Below are positions 2 through 63,243 of a stretch of DNA of 64,000 nucleotides, in pieces. The notes under the pieces were generated by a model, which was not told the DNA's origin, did not search any database, and saw only the letters and a list, made by a program, of their open reading frames with translations. Each line of letters begins with the position of its first letter. The first letter of the stretch is position 1. The stretch spans positions 416,001 to 480,000 of the forward strand of contig CBDCWP010000021.1 of NCBI GenBank assembly GCA_965223505.1, in the 5' to 3' direction. Position numbers and translations under genes: made by a program. Origin of the DNA: Planctomycetota bacterium. Its GTDB lineage: Bacteria > Planctomycetota > PLA2 > JAEUHO01.

Positions 2-2200
2 GCGCCCGCATCCGAGGCCGTTCTCGATCAACTCTGCGTGCGATTGGTAGAGCGGCTTTCTCGCGAGCTTCCGACCGTTTGGGTCGTAGAGGACCTAGAC
101 AAAGCGGAGCCCCCGTTGAGAGGGCGGATTCTCGGACTCGCGAGCGCACTCCAACGCATGCCGGCGCTCATGCTCGTCACGATCTGCGGCGAAGCACCGA
201 CATCGTACGATCCTCGCACCAGCGACGCGCTCCGCCGCATCGCGCTGCCGCCGCTCACGACGGAAGAGGTCGAGACGCTGCTCGCCGAGATGATGGACGA
301 CGCGAGCGCCGCCGCCGACCTCGCGGGCACGGTGTGGCACCGGGCGGCCGGTCTGCCACTCTACGTGCGCGAGTTCGTCGCCGCGCTGCGCCGTTCGTCG
401 ATCCTGCCGGTGCGAGAAGGCGGCGCCGCGTTGCTCAGCGCCGTGCAGAACGCCGAGCTTCCGATCGGGCTGCGAGCGCTGCTCGAAGCCCGAATCGACA
501 CACTGTCGGATGAGGATCGCGCCCTGCTCGACGCCGCGTCCGTCGCCGGGGAGGTGTTCGACCCACGGCTCCTTGCGCGTGCATTGGAGAAGCCTCGAAT
601 TCCCCTGCTCGAACGCCTGGCGCGGCTCGAGCGCATGGGCGGGTTCATTCGATCCGACGGTTCGCACTTCCGGTTCGAGCCCGCGGTTCTGCGAGACGTC
701 CTCTACGCAGCATCGCCGACCTCGCTTCGCGCGGCGTATCACGGCAACCTCGGAGAGGCGTACGCTGCGGTCTCCGAGAAACCTCCGCGTCCTCGGGAGG
801 CGGCGCCCATCGCGCGTCATCTCTTGCGCAGTGACGACCCGGCTGCGGCACTGCCCTACGTCGTTGCCGCGACGCAGCATCTCATCGCCGCGGGCCAGAA
901 GCTCGCCGAGCACGACACGCTCGTGCGGGCACTTCAGGCGCTCGGGGACGACCGCGTGCCTCTGCGACTCCGGCTGCTCGGGTTGCTCGCGAGTGCGCTG
1001 GTACGACTCGACCAGCGGGAAGCCGCAGCGAGGACGTGCGAGCAGGCCGTGACGGAGGCCATCGCGGTAGACGACGTCGACGGGCAAGTCGACCTGTCGT
1101 GCATTTGGGCGTCCATGCTCAATAGCACCGGTCGTCCGCAGGACGCTCTGGGGAAGCTCGAGCGCGTGGCGGTACTCCATGATCGCGTCGAGTCGGCGAA
1201 GGTGCGGGCGCAGTTCCTCCTAGCTCGGGGCAAAGTCTATTGGACCCTCGGCCGCTTCGCGGACGCCGCCGGCGACTTCGACGCGCTCGCGCTTCTCGGC
1301 AAGGAAGAGGGGCTCATCCACGAAGAGGCGCGCGCTCGTGGGATGCGCGGAATTCTCCTGCAAGAGTCCGGGAACAACGATGCCGCGTACGCGGAGTCGA
1401 AGCGCTCCTTGGAACTGACCCGGAAGGTCCGCGACACTTCGAATGAACCCCCCGCGCTGATCACGCTCGCCAACATCTGCGCGGCACGCGGCCATCTGGC
1501 GGAAGCACTGGACTTTCTCGAGGAAGCCATCCTGTGCTATCGACGTCTCCTGGTTCGAAGTGGTCGGGCCGCCGCTCTGGTCAACAAGGCTGCCATCCTT
1601 CGAATCCTCGGCTGGTTCGAACCGTCCCGGATCGCGGGCAGGGAATCACTCCGCCTTGCCCGAGAGACCAATGCCCGTCGCATCGAGGGCTATGCGCGGG
1701 ACGGCCTCGCGCGCCTGGCATGGGACGCCGGCGACGCCGACGAAGCCATGCGCCACGGCGAGGCCGCCCTGGCACTTCGTCGAGATATCGAAAACATGCC
1801 GGGCGTGGTGAGCTCGTTGCTGTTGCTTGCGGCGATGGCCGCCGACCGAGGCGACAAGGACGACGCATTGCGGCGTCTGCGCGAGGCCGCGGAGATCGCT
1901 GAACGGATGTCCTACGTCTCCGATCGCGTTCGTGCCGCCGTCGAGCGCGCCGCCTTGACGGGCGAAGGCACGGAGACCGCCGTCTCGCTCTTTCGCAGCC
2001 ACAGGGCGCGCCTGCACGGTGAGGATGCCCTCAGGGTGTGTCTGCTTCTCTGGCGGGCAACGGGGGAGCATGACTACCTCGACGAAGCGCGCGCGCGGGC
2101 GCGCGAGATCCTCGAGCATGCGCCGGAGGAGGCAAAGGAAGGGCTCTTCGATCGCTCGCCGCTCCTTCGATCGATTCGCGACGCCTCTGCGGACGCGTAG
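2..2200 (+). CDS. STAND/AAA-ATPase-associated TPR-repeat protein, 5'-partial (may be the C-terminal part of a kinase-ATPase-TPR protein)
   Basis: Frame is open from the window edge. Walker-B-like VWVVEDL, GLPLYVRE motif, winged-helix-like region, then many TPR-like helical repeats. Stop TAG at 2198-2200. Confidence 0.75.
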   Translation, partial: APASEAVLDQLCVRLVERLSRELPTVWVVEDLDKAEPPLRGRILGLASALQRMPALMLVTICGEAPTSYDPRTSDALRRIALPPLTTEEVETLLAEMMDDASAAADLAGTVWHRAAGLPLYVREFVAALRRSSILPVREGGAALLSAVQNAELPIGLRALLEARIDTLSDEDRALLDAASVAGEVFDPRLLARALEKPRIPLLERLARLERMGGFIRSDGSHFRFEPAVLRDVLYAASPTSLRAAYHGNLGEAYAAVSEKPPRPREAAPIARHLLRSDDPAAALPYVVAATQHLIAAGQKLAEHDTLVRALQALGDDRVPLRLRLLGLLASALVRLDQREAAARTCEQAVTEAIAVDDVDGQVDLSCIWASMLNSTGRPQDALGKLERVAVLHDRVESAKVRAQFLLARGKVYWTLGRFADAAGDFDALALLGKEEGLIHEEARARGMRGILLQESGNNDAAYAESKRSLELTRKVRDTSNEPPALITLANICAARGHLAEALDFLEEAILCYRRLLVRSGRAAALVNKAAILRILGWFEPSRIAGRESLRLARETNARRIEGYARDGLARLAWDAGDADEAMRHGEAALALRRDIENMPGVVSSLLLLAAMAADRGDKDDALRRLREAAEIAERMSYVSDRVRAAVERAALTGEGTETAVSLFRSHRARLHGEDALRVCLLLWRATGEHDYLDEARARAREILEHAPEEAKEGLFDRSPLLRSIRDASADA

Positions 2201-22206: not shown

Positions 22207-23157
22207 TCAATCCCAGAGCGACGCGAGCGAGTACGGCGATCCTTCCGGCGCCCAGAAGCTGCCGTCGATGTAGCGGTGGCCGGCGTCGAGCGCCAAGATC
22301 TGCGTCATGTCGTCTTCGTCGAGCTCGAGCGACGCCGCGGCGAGGTTCTGCGCCATGCGCTCTTTGTTGACCGACTTGGGGATCACGCTCGTTCCGCGGC
22401 AAACGGCCCACGCGAGCAGCACCTGTGCGTGGGTGACGCCGTGTCGCGCCGCCACCTCGCCGATGACCGGGTGCGTCAGCAGATCGGGGTCGTCTGCCTT
22501 GCGCAGCACCTCGGGCCGGTCCGGGGAGCCGAGCGGCGAGTAGGCCGTGACGTGGACACCGCGCTCGGCGCAGCGGGCGAGCAGGTCCTCTTGCGCCAGG
22601 TAGGGGTGCAGCTCGACCTGGTTGACGGCGACGGGAACCTCGGCTTGGTCGGCGAGCGCTTCGACCTTCTTCGCGCTGAAGTTCGAGACGCCCAGGTGCC
22701 GCACCAGTCCGCCCTTCTTGCACGCCTCCATCGCACGCCAGGTCTCCAGCAACGGAACCTCGTCGAGGCTCACGAGATCGGCCGCCGACTCGGGAAAGAA
22801 CACGCCCGGCTTCAACGCGACCGGCCAGTGCATCAGGTAGAGGTCGAGCTCGTCGAGCTTCAGATCCCCGAGCGTCTTCTCGAGCGCGGGACGCACGTCG
22901 CTCTCGCGGTGCGCGTCGTTCCAGAGCTTGGAGGTGATGAACAAGTCCTCGCGTGTGACGTCGCCGTCCTCGATGGCCGCGCGAATCGCCTCGCCGATCT
23001 CGGCTTCGTTGGCGTACGCCGCGGCGCAGTCGAAGTGCCGGTAGCCGAGGCGAATCGCCGTTCGGATGACGGGTGCGACCTCGCCGGGGTCCGACTTCCA
23101 GGTGCCGAGGCCCAGGGCGGGAATGGTGCCACCGTCCGACAGGTCATGGTGCTTCAC
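22207..23157 (-). CDS. aldo/keto reductase
   Basis: LGLGTW, GYRHFDCAAAYANE, FITSKLWN, DLYLMHWP, GVSNF, VIPKS. GTG start at 23157. Confidence 0.95.
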   Translation of the reverse strand: MKHHDLSDGGTIPALGLGTWKSDPGEVAPVIRTAIRLGYRHFDCAAAYANEAEIGEAIRAAIEDGDVTREDLFITSKLWNDAHRESDVRPALEKTLGDLKLDELDLYLMHWPVALKPGVFFPESAADLVSLDEVPLLETWRAMEACKKGGLVRHLGVSNFSAKKVEALADQAEVPVAVNQVELHPYLAQEDLLARCAERGVHVTAYSPLGSPDRPEVLRKADDPDLLTHPVIGEVAARHGVTHAQVLLAWAVCRGTSVIPKSVNKERMAQNLAAASLELDEDDMTQILALDAGHRYIDGSFWAPEGSPYSLASLWD

Positions 23158-23278
23158 GGGAGCTCTCCTCTCGCCCGCGTTGTACTCCGGAACCGAGCGT
23201 CGAATGAAGTCCTTGCCACGACGAAGGAACACGACGCGTTCCACGCGCGTCTCCTGGTTTCGCGAATGGAGGTGCGCC

Positions 23279-23530
23279 ATGTCCAGACGAAACAGCCCCG
23301 ACGATCTCCCGTCCTTTCGATCGGACGAGCAAGCGTAGAAGGGGGTTCCCTTCCGAGACCCGCGTCGGCCGCGGCGTGCGCGTGGTGCACGGCAACAAGG
23401 AGCTTCTCGAGAAGCTCGGCCGCAACGACCTGTGTCCGTGCGGCTCCGGTCGGCGCTTTCAAGCGCTGCTGCCTTCGTAGCGGCCGCTTTCGACGGCTCG
23501 CAGCGGAACGACTACTTCCGCGACGAGTGA
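23279..23530 (+). CDS. SEC-C zinc-binding motif small protein (82 aa), reconstructed through three +1 frameshifts at C_TTT_C
   Basis: GGAGGT RBS plus ATG 23279. Segments [13 protein letters not shown] / [47 protein letters not shown] / [10 protein letters not shown] / [15 protein letters not shown]. Junctions at TTT 23315-17, 23457-59 and 23488-90. Confidence 0.75.
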
Positions 23531-23596
23531 ACCTGCGCTCCACGGGCTCCGGCCCGTGGAGCATGTCTTCGGAACGGCGATCGCTCGAGTCTGCCG

Positions 23597-24670
23597 CTAT
23601 TTGTCCGTGATCGCCTGAATCTCGGACAATAGCGCGTCCGCGACGATGCGGTTCCCGAGCTCGTTCCAGTGCGGGTCCCGGTCGAACTGCGTCGGTTCGG
23701 ACGATGCCAACTTGGGACGCTCGAAGTACGGAACGAGATCGATGAACGGGATGCCGAGCGTCTCGCACGCCTGCGCCGCACGCTGTCCGCCGTACGGTGC
23801 CGCGATCCAGAGCGGCAGCGAGTGCTCGCCGCAAAGATCGCGCAGTCGTTCATAGACGAACTCGAGGGCGACTTGCTCGTCGTCCTCGAAGCGGGCCGGT
23901 AGCGCAGGCGCAGCTCCGGACGCCGGCACCACTGCCGGCTGATCGGTCCGACGTGCCGCACTGACGTAGAAGTGCAGGTAGTTGTAGACCATCGAGTTGT
24001 TGACCAGCCAGCCCTCGATCGTGCGTCCGAACTGCTGCTCGACTTGCTCGTTCTCGATGCGTGCCCGGCCGTTCTCGACGACGACGTACGGCCGCGTGCG
24101 CCGAACATCGACGTTCTCCCCTGCGTCGTTGTGGCAGAACATCAGGAGCACCGCATCCGGCCGTTCGCCGCGATCGAGGCGCTCGCGCAAGAGCAAGTAC
24201 TCCTGCAGCGAGGAGTACCCGGGCGCACCCAGGTTGCGGTACACCCGGCCGTCCGAACCCAGATTCATGTGATCGACCCAGGTTCGACCGTCCCGTACAC
24301 CCCAGCCCCACGTCAGCGAGTCGCCGAGGCACCACACCACGTCGACCGTGGACGTGGCATCCTCGGCGATGCGCGACCCGATGTTGCAGCGGCGAAAGCC
24401 GTCTTCGTCGTGCGTGATCTCCACGTCGAACTCCGTCGTGGTGAATCGGGCATCGGCATCGGGACGTCCGACCCAGCCGATACGGGGATGGAACTCGAAG
24501 TAGGCGACGAGCACCGTGGGGGTGCGCGGTGCGACGCCGGCGATGCGCAGGCCGACCTCCGCGAGCAACACGACGAACAGGAGCGAGCCGAGAAGCAACC
24601 CAACCCGTGCCGCGACGTATCGAACGCGTGACAGGAGCCCCTTCTTCGGTATCGGCTCCGACGCGTTCAT
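23597..24670 (-). CDS. SGNH/GDSL hydrolase-like protein (AlgX/AlgJ-type)
   Basis: N-terminal TM; LGDSLTWG, NLGAPGYS, CHND, DPHWN. Confidence 0.85.
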   Translation of the reverse strand: MNASEPIPKKGLLSRVRYVAARVGLLLGSLLFVVLLAEVGLRIAGVAPRTPTVLVAYFEFHPRIGWVGRPDADARFTTTEFDVEITHDEDGFRRCNIGSRIAEDATSTVDVVWCLGDSLTWGWGVRDGRTWVDHMNLGSDGRVYRNLGAPGYSSLQEYLLLRERLDRGERPDAVLLMFCHNDAGENVDVRRTRPYVVVENGRARIENEQVEQQFGRTIEGWLVNNSMVYNYLHFYVSAARRTDQPAVVPASGAAPALPARFEDDEQVALEFVYERLRDLCGEHSLPLWIAAPYGGQRAAQACETLGIPFIDLVPYFERPKLASSEPTQFDRDPHWNELGNRIVADALLSEIQAITDK

Positions 24671-61392: not shown

Positions 61393-63243
61393 ATGCGGCA
61401 CGCCTTCGTTGGATGCCTGCTCCTGGTCGCCGCTGCGTGCGGTGGCGGGGGCGGCGCCGCCCCCACGCCCCCCGCTCCCGAGGTCGTCGATCTCGGCACT
61501 GTTCCCTCGACCGAGGTGACGGCCTTCGTGCAGACGTTCGTCAACTGGACCGGGCAACCCGCGACGCTGCTCACTGACACCAGCACGGGCGGCTACTCGG
61601 TGGCGCCGTTCCAGCTGCCGCTGTTGGTGCAGCCGTTCGAGGCGGTCGATCTGACGTTACAGCTGATGCCGCCGGGTCCGGGACCGGCGGACGGCATGGT
61701 GAAAGTGTTGTTCCAGGCGCCCAACGGCGACCTCGGCGTCACACAGGAGTTCACGGCGATCGCGGAGCCGCTGAGCCTCGACGTGGACTTGACGCCGCTG
61801 GCGTTCGGGGAGGTGCTGCCCGGCACGACGAAGGACCTCACCATCAGCGTCGAGAACACGAGCGTCCTGAGTCCGGCGACGCTGAGTCCGATCTTGCTTC
61901 CGAGCGCGCTGTTCCAGGTCGTGAACCCGCCGCCGGTCGTGATCGCGCCCGGTACGACCGGCGATCTGACGATTCGATACGCGCCGACGGGACCCGCGGC
62001 GACCGACGGCAACGTCGTGATCAACAGCGTCGGTCTGCAAGCGCCGATCAACGTTCCGTGTACGGCGACGTCGGGCGGCGAGGAGATCGTCGATCTCGGC
62101 ACGCAGACGTTCAATGCCAACGGCATGTCGCAGGCGCACATCGACATCGGCGGCACGGGCATCACCGACCTGCTCTCCGTCGACGTCCCGGACGACGCGA
62201 TCAGCATGATGATCGAGGGCACCGTGACGGGCACGAGCATCGTGGGACTCGGTGAGTGGACGGGCCCCGGCGGGCAGGTCTACGAAAACACGCAGCTGAC
62301 GGGCGAGTTCCTGTGGTTCGACAGCGCCGAGTTCTTCGTCGCGCGGCTTCCGGCGAGCGACCGAGCGGCGCTCAAGCTGGTGCAGGGCGGCGGCACGTAC
62401 ACGTTCAAGCTGCTGCGCATGGGCGGCAACGACACGTCGGTGGACGTGCGCGTCATCATCGAGCGGCGGCCCGGGCCGACGGAGAACGTGGCGACGCTCG
62501 ACCTCAACGTCTGGTTGGCGGACGGGATCGATCCGACCGCCGCCAACGCGGCCACGCATCAGGACCTGCAGGACGTGCTCGACAAGATCAAGGAGCTGCT
62601 CGGCCAACGCGGCATCACGGTCGGGGACATCGACTACTACGACGTCACCAACGCGTCGTACGACCACGTGACGAGCGACGCCGAGTTTCGCGATCTGCTG
62701 AAGCTGTCGTCGACGGCGGCGGAGGTGCGGCTGAACTTCTTCTTCGTCGAGACGGCGCTGGGCGGTGGCGTGCTCGGCGTGGCCGGCGCGATCGACGGAC
62801 CGAAGCTCAACGGCACGGCCTCGTCGGGCGTGATGGGACTGTGGATCGACAACCCGTCGGCGAACGACGTGGACCTCGTCGGCACGGTCGCAGCGCACGA
62901 GATGGGGCACCTGCTCGGCTTGTTCCACACGGCGGAGTCGGACGGGACGCACGATCGGATCGACGACACGAGCGATTGCGGATCGGGCGGGTGCACCGGC
63001 GACGGCAATCCCGACAACGACTACTTGATGCACTGGAGTGCGAGCACCGGGGGCGGGGCGATCTCGCCGGCGCAGGGGACGATCCTGCGCAGTCATCCAC
63101 TGATGACCGAAGCGCTGCCGACGGCGCCGCTCACGAGCAAGCCGGCGGCGTCGAGGGTCGGCGGGCCGATCGCGGTGCATCCGAACTGGTGCGGGACCTG
63201 TCGTCACTGCGCGAAGAAGAAGGCGGCGGGCGGCGGCCGCTGA
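61393..63243 (+). CDS. lipoprotein zinc metallopeptidase (M43/metzincin-like) with Ig-like domains
   Basis: Lipobox AAAC; LAFGEV..G Ig-like domain; HEMGHLLGLFH; YLM Met-turn. Confidence 0.85.
   Translation: MRHAFVGCLLLVAAACGGGGGAAPTPPAPEVVDLGTVPSTEVTAFVQTFVNWTGQPATLLTDTSTGGYSVAPFQLPLLVQPFEAVDLTLQLMPPGPGPADGMVKVLFQAPNGDLGVTQEFTAIAEPLSLDVDLTPLAFGEVLPGTTKDLTISVENTSVLSPATLSPILLPSALFQVVNPPPVVIAPGTTGDLTIRYAPTGPAATDGNVVINSVGLQAPINVPCTATSGGEEIVDLGTQTFNANGMSQAHIDIGGTGITDLLSVDVPDDAISMMIEGTVTGTSIVGLGEWTGPGGQVYENTQLTGEFLWFDSAEFFVARLPASDRAALKLVQGGGTYTFKLLRMGGNDTSVDVRVIIERRPGPTENVATLDLNVWLADGIDPTAANAATHQDLQDVLDKIKELLGQRGITVGDIDYYDVTNASYDHVTSDAEFRDLLKLSSTAAEVRLNFFFVETALGGGVLGVAGAIDGPKLNGTASSGVMGLWIDNPSANDVDLVGTVAAHEMGHLLGLFHTAESDGTHDRIDDTSDCGSGGCTGDGNPDNDYLMHWSASTGGGAISPAQGTILRSHPLMTEALPTAPLTSKPAASRVGGPIAVHPNWCGTCRHCAKKKAAGGGR

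Follow-up and report, generated by a model that had tools for sequence, protein, structure and literature searches.

The locus examined here raises the question of how a small gene whose coding sequence is broken in three places could still yield a protein. It lies at positions 23279 to 23530 on the forward strand of the window, by which we mean the whole analysed stretch of 64,000 nucleotides (64 kb) from contig CBDCWP010000021.1 of a Planctomycetota bacterium; coordinates below are positions in this window. Three forward frames each carry one piece of the same 82-amino-acid protein with a SEC-C zinc knuckle, and this product is obtained from ATG 23279 only if one base is skipped at each of three TTT_C sites. 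Judged from its sequence and that of its relatives, the locus is best explained as an intact gene whose full-length protein would require three successive +1 shifts. Serial programmed +1 ribosomal frameshifting, through slippage of tRNA-Phe in the P site, is the best reading of the locus and in our judgement the probable mechanism.

Layout of the gene and its product

An earlier note on this DNA, made from the letters alone, had described a GGAGGT ahead of ATG 23279, a frame ending after 19 codons, three slip sites and an 82-residue product. Translation frame by frame, with each in-frame TTTC read as a single step, reproduced all of these (Table 1). Exactly three TTTC steps occur in the joined reading, at F13, F60 and F70, and F23 and F79, its only other Phe codons, are in-frame TTC, as had been claimed. 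Three of the five Phe codons of the gene are thus TTT, every one of them at a frame break. Across the long open reading frames (ORFs) of this genome, which has a GC content of 67.4%, TTT accounts for 2273 of 34638 Phe codons. Beyond site 1 the unshifted frame continues for six codons to TAG 23336-23338, and beyond site 2 for another six to TAG 23478-23480; at site 3 it stays open to 23610.

The segment between sites 1 and 2 holds the conserved core and the first half of the SEC-C motif, and the segment between sites 2 and 3 completes the CPC...CC zinc knuckle. The Pfam SEC-C profile PF02810 matches residues 48-66 of the 82-residue reconstruction (E 1.6e-9, 37.9 bits against a cut-off of 20.4) and is complete only after the second shift, which bears out the proposal that slipping at CGC_TTT_CAA completes the motif. 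NCBIfam models of the YchJ and YecA type align to the motif only (residues 44-66) and reach at best 33 bits, far below the cut-offs of 120-158 for full-length membership. The protein is strongly basic. Its basic N-terminal block, SKRRxGFPSETxVKRGxRxVHG, matched no named family in Pfam and NCBIfam scans. An AlphaFold2 model of the in-frame homologue P0003, computed from a 62-sequence alignment, is of low confidence (mean predicted local distance difference test score, pLDDT, 57.6).

Frame breaks in close and distant relatives

Matches at E <= 1e-15 among 60 related genomes were taken as orthologues, and the DNA of each was read. Five genomes, from four other genera, carry one; the many weaker matches fell on SEC-C motifs in other proteins. 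The search returned a second match, in another frame, for four of the five orthologues. All five have TTT_C breaks at homologous Phe positions, and in a DNA alignment of the clade single-base gaps fall exactly at the break positions. Site 1 is present in all six clade copies (the window and the five orthologues), and so is site 2, as CGC_TTT_CAA or CGC_TTT_CCA within the SEC-C motif. In four orthologues a Shine-Dalgarno (SD) element and an ATG are followed by about 10-13 codons and then xxC_TTT_CGA_G; the fifth has the SD element and no canonical start codon in the TTT frame. GGAGG or GAGG stands at the same spacing ahead of the ATG in the relatives as in the window.

The remaining breaks vary within the clade. 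At the column of site 3 (GRF-DG, where the hyphen marks the break) only the window is shifted, and the five relatives have an in-frame Tyr or Leu. A break at YF-RE occurs in four of the five copies reaching that point, where the window has an in-frame TTC, and two of the five orthologues have an extra break at GF-PSE. Three relatives (L009, L010 and L012) carry GGGAGG 3 nt ahead of site 2; the window has GGTCGG there. In all six copies the unshifted frame past site 1 stops 5-8 codons on, at TAA or TAG. This stop (window 23318-23338 and L009-L013) arises at a CGT-A codon junction, CGT being a minor Arg codon; it may have been selected as an 'abort' signal at which unslipped ribosomes end.

A wider survey started from a search of species representatives, which gave 577 relatives, the nearest named ones being metagenome-assembled genomes of Planctomycetota, Gemmatimonadales and Acidobacteriota. 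The best 80 were fetched, and 70 of these together with the five close relatives and the window formed the 76 loci analysed first; the other ten of the 80, skipped by the anchor pattern, were analysed later and all carry breaks. A further 29 loci came from a sample of 401 genomes of the window's phylum and from viral contigs. Loci were read with a frameshift-tolerant dynamic programme that fits the family profile to DNA; four-base steps were given a low penalty only where TTT precedes C or T, and generic shifts, permitted at any position, a high one.

The earlier note had proposed serial +1 frameshifting at UUU_C and had named uniformly in-frame homologues as grounds for dropping it. Instead, breaks are conserved in the five orthologues, and of 113 distinct loci of the family, spread over many phyla, 109 have at least one, which supports the proposal. 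Among the 103 loci tallied, 50 genes have two breaks, 41 three, seven one, four none and one gene four. With few exceptions the breaks consist of TTT_Y steps and fall in one of five fixed Phe columns. Over the 76 loci, the site types are UUU_UGA (40), UUU_UAG (30), UUU_CAA (9), UUU_CAG (9) and UUU_CGA (8, six of them at the third shift column and two at the first). Lower-GC lineages use T instead of C after TTT, which gives UGA, UAG or UAA.

The commonest shift column in these 76 loci is GRF-DG, with TTT_TGA in 40, TTT_CGA in six, other YUN_Y sites in six and an in-frame Tyr, Leu or Phe in 29. At YF-R(D/E) the shifted forms are TTT_TAG (30), TTT_TTT_C (10), TTT_CAG (9) and TTT_CCG (7), with 15 in-frame TTC. 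At RRF-K, the column of site 2, TTT_CAA (9) and TTT_CCA (3) are found beside 52 in-frame TTC; a break at site 2 occurs in 13 of the 76 loci, and in further loci of the later sets. The site 1 column has TTTY in 71 of 76 loci. In 29 of these 71 the downstream frame lacks any start codon and the TTT frame has one, usually an ATG with an SD element 30-42 nt upstream; an ATG lies solely in the TTT frame in 56 of 103 loci, a short leader ending in TTT_Y being the commonest layout. Judged from these alignments, shift sites evidently move between Phe columns during evolution.

Other shift codons occur as well. CUU_UGA stands at the shift in L096, L099 and L114, and acidobacterial copies shift at CUU_CGG. 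Breaks outside Phe columns were seen in L148 and L151 (column K40), L150 (R37) and L076, L091 and L092 (L65), at AAA_A and CGG_G, both in one family, and at CUU_C.

The segments behind the breaks vary mainly at codon position 3 of their own frame and are out of phase in the preceding frame. Where site 3 is broken (55 loci), the entropy at positions 1, 2 and 3 is 0.70, 0.53 and 1.33, in alignments that were fitted to a protein model and therefore inflate apparent conservation at positions 1 and 2. The +1 tail past YF is only 2-4 residues long (RE, RD, REKD, then stop), and it is conserved and in frame in some members. By this pattern the protein is under purifying selection in every frame segment. 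The third shift had been ranked the weakest in the earlier note; this ranking is overturned, since the frame after site 3 encodes the C-terminus of the family, DGxxRxxYFR(D/E)-stop.

At least 2000 annotated small proteins (55-110 amino acids) match the reconstruction, from Verrucomicrobia, Cyanobacteria, Melainabacteria, Acidobacteria, Chloroflexi and Proteobacteria. The best of them (E 1.8e-30) is an in-frame homologue that is 70% identical across 96% of the query. Many annotated homologues end at ...GRF or ...YF or start at MSKRR, and some continue as unshifted read-through; the fragments are accounted for by gene callers meeting a frameshifted gene. One homologue, P0018, has the unshifted reading of site 2 with a compensating change in one frame and loses the KxCC half of the motif; decay of this copy or a fault in its assembly may be the reason.

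Table 1. Positions of the gene, its shift sites and adjoining features in the window
Feature	Position	Strand	Remarks
Shine-Dalgarno-like GGAGGT	23268..23273	+	5 nt upstream of ATG 23279
Segment A, ATG frame, 13 codons	23279..23317	+	ends in shift codon 1, TTT 23315-23317
Shift site 1, TCC_TTT_CGA	23312..23320	+	skipped base C 23318
Segment B, +1 frame, 47 codons	23319..23459	+	ends in shift codon 2, TTT 23457-23459
Shift site 2, CGC_TTT_CAA	23454..23462	+	within SEC-C motif; skipped base C 23460
Segment C, +2 frame, 10 codons	23461..23490	+	ends in shift codon 3, TTT 23488-23490
Shift site 3, CGC_TTT_CGA	23485..23493	+	skipped base C 23491
Segment D, back in ATG frame	23492..23530	+	stop TGA 23528-23530; fits family C-terminus
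G+C-rich hairpin, 11 bp	23537..23562	+	just 3' of the shifted-frame stop; no T run
Aldo/keto reductase gene	22207..23154	-	divergent neighbour; PF00248, E 2.9e-58; outside the system
GDSL/SGNH hydrolase gene	23597..24670	-	convergent neighbour; PF13472, E 1.5e-14; outside the system
444-amino-acid ORF	22276..23610	+	mostly antisense to the aldo/keto reductase gene

Probable ribosomal slippage and its alternatives

In the mechanism that we favour, tRNA-Phe with anticodon GAA would sit in the P site on UUU through a G:U wobble, slip one base forward onto UUC, which it matches perfectly, and thereby set the ribosome to read GAU, AAG and GAC where the old frame has CGA, CAA and CGA. Ribosomes that did not slip at site 1 or site 2 would terminate seven codons later, and full-length output would for that reason be the product of three slip efficiencies. 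The sites suit such P-site re-pairing: UUU_C is present at all three in the window and UUU_Y at nearly all breaks of the family, and two tRNA-Phe(GAA) genes are present in the window's genome. According to the accessible part of PMC5009743, UUU_Ynn is especially +1-prone in bacteria and UCC_UUU_CGU is the PA-X cassette of influenza.

An argument from rare A-site codons carries less weight than it might at first sight: the extra C together with the following Asp, Glu or Lys codon dictates CGA and CAA, whose rarity cannot for this reason be taken as selected, and TTT_CGA and TTT_CAA are not avoided genome-wide.

Beside the fitting bias mentioned above, several observations weigh against the favoured mechanism. 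Of the 2273 in-frame TTT codons in long ORFs of this genome, 1612 precede a C, and by a test of G+C content at third codon positions (GC3) 1521 of these 1612 stay in frame; TTT_CGA (61) and TTT_CAA (29) occur in ordinary genes without being avoided. UUU_C is therefore not generally shifty, and very little protein would come from three slips that nothing stimulates. At the GF-PSE column TTT_C is read in frame in six family loci; whether a shift occurs must thus depend on more than the tetranucleotide. None of the window's three shift sites is preceded by an SD-like element, a conserved mRNA structure was not found (the RNAalifold covariation term was unfavourable, with only five sequences), and no RNA run is listed as containing the locus. 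In L074, L103 and L083 the break at column 70 is at CUG_U or CUG_C, for which +1 re-pairing is poor. The protein may be made only in traces, each slip being inefficient; otherwise an unrecognised cis or trans factor must act, possible trans factors being the state of tRNA-Phe and A-site supply.

Codon context in the same long ORFs is itself uneven. C follows TTT in 71% of cases (1612/2273) against 23% for TTC, and G is depleted after TTT (18% against 47% after TTC).

That the event is ribosomal rather than one of RNA we infer from the sites themselves. Polymerase slippage or editing could in principle remove one U per site from the transcript, and at site 1 some members do have long T runs (seven T, then C, in L048, L055, L093 and L114) at which transcriptional slippage is plausible. 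The runs of the window are only T3, however, and most sites of the family are T3-T4. Programmed transcriptional slippage is known from homopolymers far longer than these, breaks also fall at CUU_U, CUU_C and CUG_U, which are not homopolymers, and we know of no U-deletion editing in bacteria. Correction at the RNA level thus seems very improbable.

We give equally little credence to quadruplet decoding, in which a dedicated tRNA or a modified tRNA-Phe would take UUUY as one Phe codon. Such decoding would fit the uniformity of the shift codons, all UUU followed by C in the window and by U or C at the five Phe columns of the family. One of the two tRNA-Phe(GAA) genes in the window's genome is divergent, carries G32 and U38 and belongs to a tRNA array, and 13 of 75 family loci lie within tRNA arrays. 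However, no tRNA with an expanded, eight-base anticodon loop fitting UUUY is among the 66 tRNAs predicted by ARAGORN in this 92% complete genome, and the arrays around family members contain neither tRNA-Phe nor an expanded-loop tRNA. The in-frame TTT_C, both genome-wide and at the GF-PSE column, and the non-Phe shift codons (CUU, CUG and AAA_A) speak against it as well. A general four-base reading of TTTC was ruled out by the GC3 test.

The array with the divergent tRNA-Phe(GAA), of about 13 tRNAs, is on another contig (approximately 191174-192297, minus strand) and not near the SEC-C gene.

A decaying pseudogene, left from an in-frame SEC-C gene by three chance insertions, is likewise most unlikely. 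In-frame versions of the gene exist in other lineages, the gene is patchily distributed (27 of the 401 phylum genomes), and at least one relative, L146, looks degenerate. The window gene, though, displays neither arbitrary disruptions nor lost constraint. All three breaks are +1 and at Phe columns that other members use as shift sites, two of them in common with all five orthologues from four other genera; there is no other stop or indel, the SD element and ATG are intact, and the reconstruction keeps about 70% identity to in-frame homologues over 96% of its length. By our rough estimate, three random insertions in about 250 nt would all appear as an extra T in an in-frame TTC with a probability of about 1e-6.

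Slightly less probable still is that no full-length protein is made, the 19-codon ORF being a leader peptide and the product a shorter one from GTG 23376 or separate pieces. GTG 23376 does open a reading frame, and many annotated homologues start at an internal Met just past site 1 (MSKRR...). But the window has no Met after site 1, its segment B frame offers no ATG, GTG or TTG ahead of GTG 23376, and the invariant block SKRRxGFPSETxV, with the invariant family residues S17, K18, R19, G22, P24, S25, E26 and T27, lies entirely upstream of that codon. A product from GTG 23376 would still need the second shift for its zinc knuckle, and behind sites 2 and 3 each segment shows conservation in its own frame.

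For the assembly, we examined Logan contigs, as distinct from raw reads, from three runs of one sample and study. A contig of run X1 covers the whole of 22900-23900, one of run X3 covers 23309-23760, and contigs of run X2 cover 23199-23419 and 23483-23900, each with 0 other letters and 0 gaps; where the earlier note had asked whether the extra base might be spurious, they read TTT, not TT, at the three sites. Their agreement is weak independent support, since the runs share one sample and X1 may be the window's own source. The comparative evidence carries far more weight. Sequencing or assembly errors at short T runs, conceivable in a genome of 44 contigs, are made next to negligible by the agreement of the three runs, by intact neighbouring genes and by the same breaks in more than 100 independent assemblies, complete isolate genomes among them.

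Surroundings, parallels and possible function

The neighbours of the gene in the window are intact and give no functional hint. The 444-amino-acid ORF provides, with its final part, the KRCC frame of the SEC-C gene. The hairpin behind the gene (-28.1 kcal/mol, z -3.0, with 2 of 200 shuffles folding equally well) is a possible transcript end; it was not listed by a scan for consensus terminators, which found only two terminator-like sites upstream of the gene, both on the minus strand. No sigma-70 promoter was found in the promoter and terminator scan of the locus. Farther off, at 63064-63147 on the minus strand, ARAGORN predicts an 84-nt 'tRNA-???' with the four-base anticodon tcgg. It does not fit UUUY; the prediction may be spurious, or the element an unusual one resembling a tRNA.

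The gene family is also found in isolates and complete genomes (Stieleria magnilauensis TBK1r, Novipirellula SH528, Massilia pinisoli JCM 31316 and Acidobacteriaceae KBS 96), which shows that metagenome binning did not produce the pattern. Some members have a transposase or integrase gene (IS4, IS66, rve) next to them, at 3-1109 (minus strand) in L010, 1-804 in L103 and 136-1317 in L108. Such neighbours and the patchy distribution are a hint of mobility, either of the gene itself or of the arrays in which it lies. A viral origin was considered and set aside: only three true members were found in 2.9 million viral contigs, and the family is not mainly a phage gene.

The context of the gene elsewhere was surveyed at 75 family loci besides the window, with 138 flanking ORFs scanned. 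In the 13 loci within tRNA arrays the gene is co-oriented with the array, often placed just after tRNA-Arg(TCG) and tRNA-Arg(GCG) and before tRNA-Cys. Eleven loci have a co-oriented downstream gene of the RNA-repair type (Hen1 in four, Thg1-like in three, RtcB in two, an RNA ligase in one and TROVE/Ro in one), and HD-domain genes lie downstream in four more. These neighbourhoods in other genomes support a link of the family with tRNA biology and RNA repair. No tRNA or RNA-repair gene is among the flanking genes of the window's copy; any guess at its function is for this reason borrowed from other genomes, which again weighs against the interpretation below.

The closest parallel is prfB, the gene of release factor 2, where at CUU_UGA_C the P-site tRNA likewise slips +1 from YUU onto UUY. 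In a minority of prfB genes UUU_U replaces CUU_U, as stated in the accessible part of PMC5009743. The resemblance extends to the 0-frame UGA right after the shift codon in the family (UUU_UGA in 40 of 76 loci), to the literal CUU_UGA in L096, L099 and L114, and to the GGGAGG of L009, L010 and L012, whose 3-nt distance from site 2 is the spacing of prfB. Unlike prfB, which has one site, the family has two to four or more per gene. The A-site codons of the window are sense codons (CGA, CAA, CGA) and not 0-frame stops, and its sites have no SD-like element about 3 nt upstream. The feedback logic of prfB does not carry over, because the family product is not a release factor.

Error-prone UUU_Y sites of E. 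coli and the YopN-TyeA fusion of Yersinia involve the same tetranucleotide in bacteria, but they are single sites with adventitious or minor products; here the slips would be serial, conserved across phyla and obligatory for a conserved protein. UUU followed by a pyrimidine was reportedly the object of a study by Schwartz and Curran. Site 1 of the window, UCC_UUU_CGA, is identical to the UCC_UUU_CGU of influenza A PA-X save for the Arg wobble base; PA-X is viral and eukaryotic, with a single site used at a very low level, no stimulator and an alternative C-terminus as its product (accessible part of PMC5009743). In Euplotes the shift codon is also followed by a stop (AAA_UAA or AAA_UAG) and some genes have more than one shift, as far as the accessible part of PMC4759687 shows. 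There, however, shifting is a genome-wide property of ciliate termination; here it concerns, as far as tested, one small gene family. The CPC...(K/R)CC zinc knuckle is common to the C-terminal metal-binding domain of SecA and to YecA and YchJ, which differ from the present family in that its basic N-terminal block is outside any named family.

To our knowledge, few programmed +1 frameshifts have been established in bacterial cellular genes, each at a single site, with prfB as the classic case. Programmed +1 frameshifting and the UUU_Y site are thus already known; new is a conserved bacterial gene requiring several serial slips, whose sites change from one Phe column to another. In the literature covered, which includes the accessible parts of PMC8421152, PMC3711429 and PMC5009743 and excludes subscription journals and supplements, nothing was found that describes the family.

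With low confidence, we suggest that the purpose of the breaks may be a steep gate tying synthesis of the zinc-knuckle protein to the state of the decoding machinery, that is, tRNA-Phe or A-site supply. A multiplicative sensor of tRNA-Phe modification or of fidelity, as the earlier note had imagined, is speculation; it fits the tRNA and RNA-repair neighbourhoods seen elsewhere. Spelled out as a frameshift meter, which we regard as possible but rather unlikely, the requirement for two to four UUU_Y slips would let synthesis rise steeply only when decoding is perturbed, by hypomodified or damaged tRNA-Phe, by depleted A-site tRNAs, or by release factors running short at the UGA and UAG sites. 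Ribosomes or tRNAs would in that case be the target of the basic zinc-knuckle product, within a response comprising tRNA arrays and RNA repair (RtcB, Pnkp/Hen1, Thg1-like proteins and Ro).

For the family as a whole, the arrangement explains why annotators fragment it, and it offers a natural system for the efficiency of unstimulated UUU_Y slippage or for a hidden stimulator. Cultured carriers (Stieleria magnilauensis, Massilia pinisoli and Acidobacteriaceae KBS 96) make direct testing possible. The arrangement also links recoding to tRNA arrays and RNA repair, and, if the frameshift meter proved true, the family would represent regulatory serial frameshifting in cellular genes, for which no bacterial precedent has been described.

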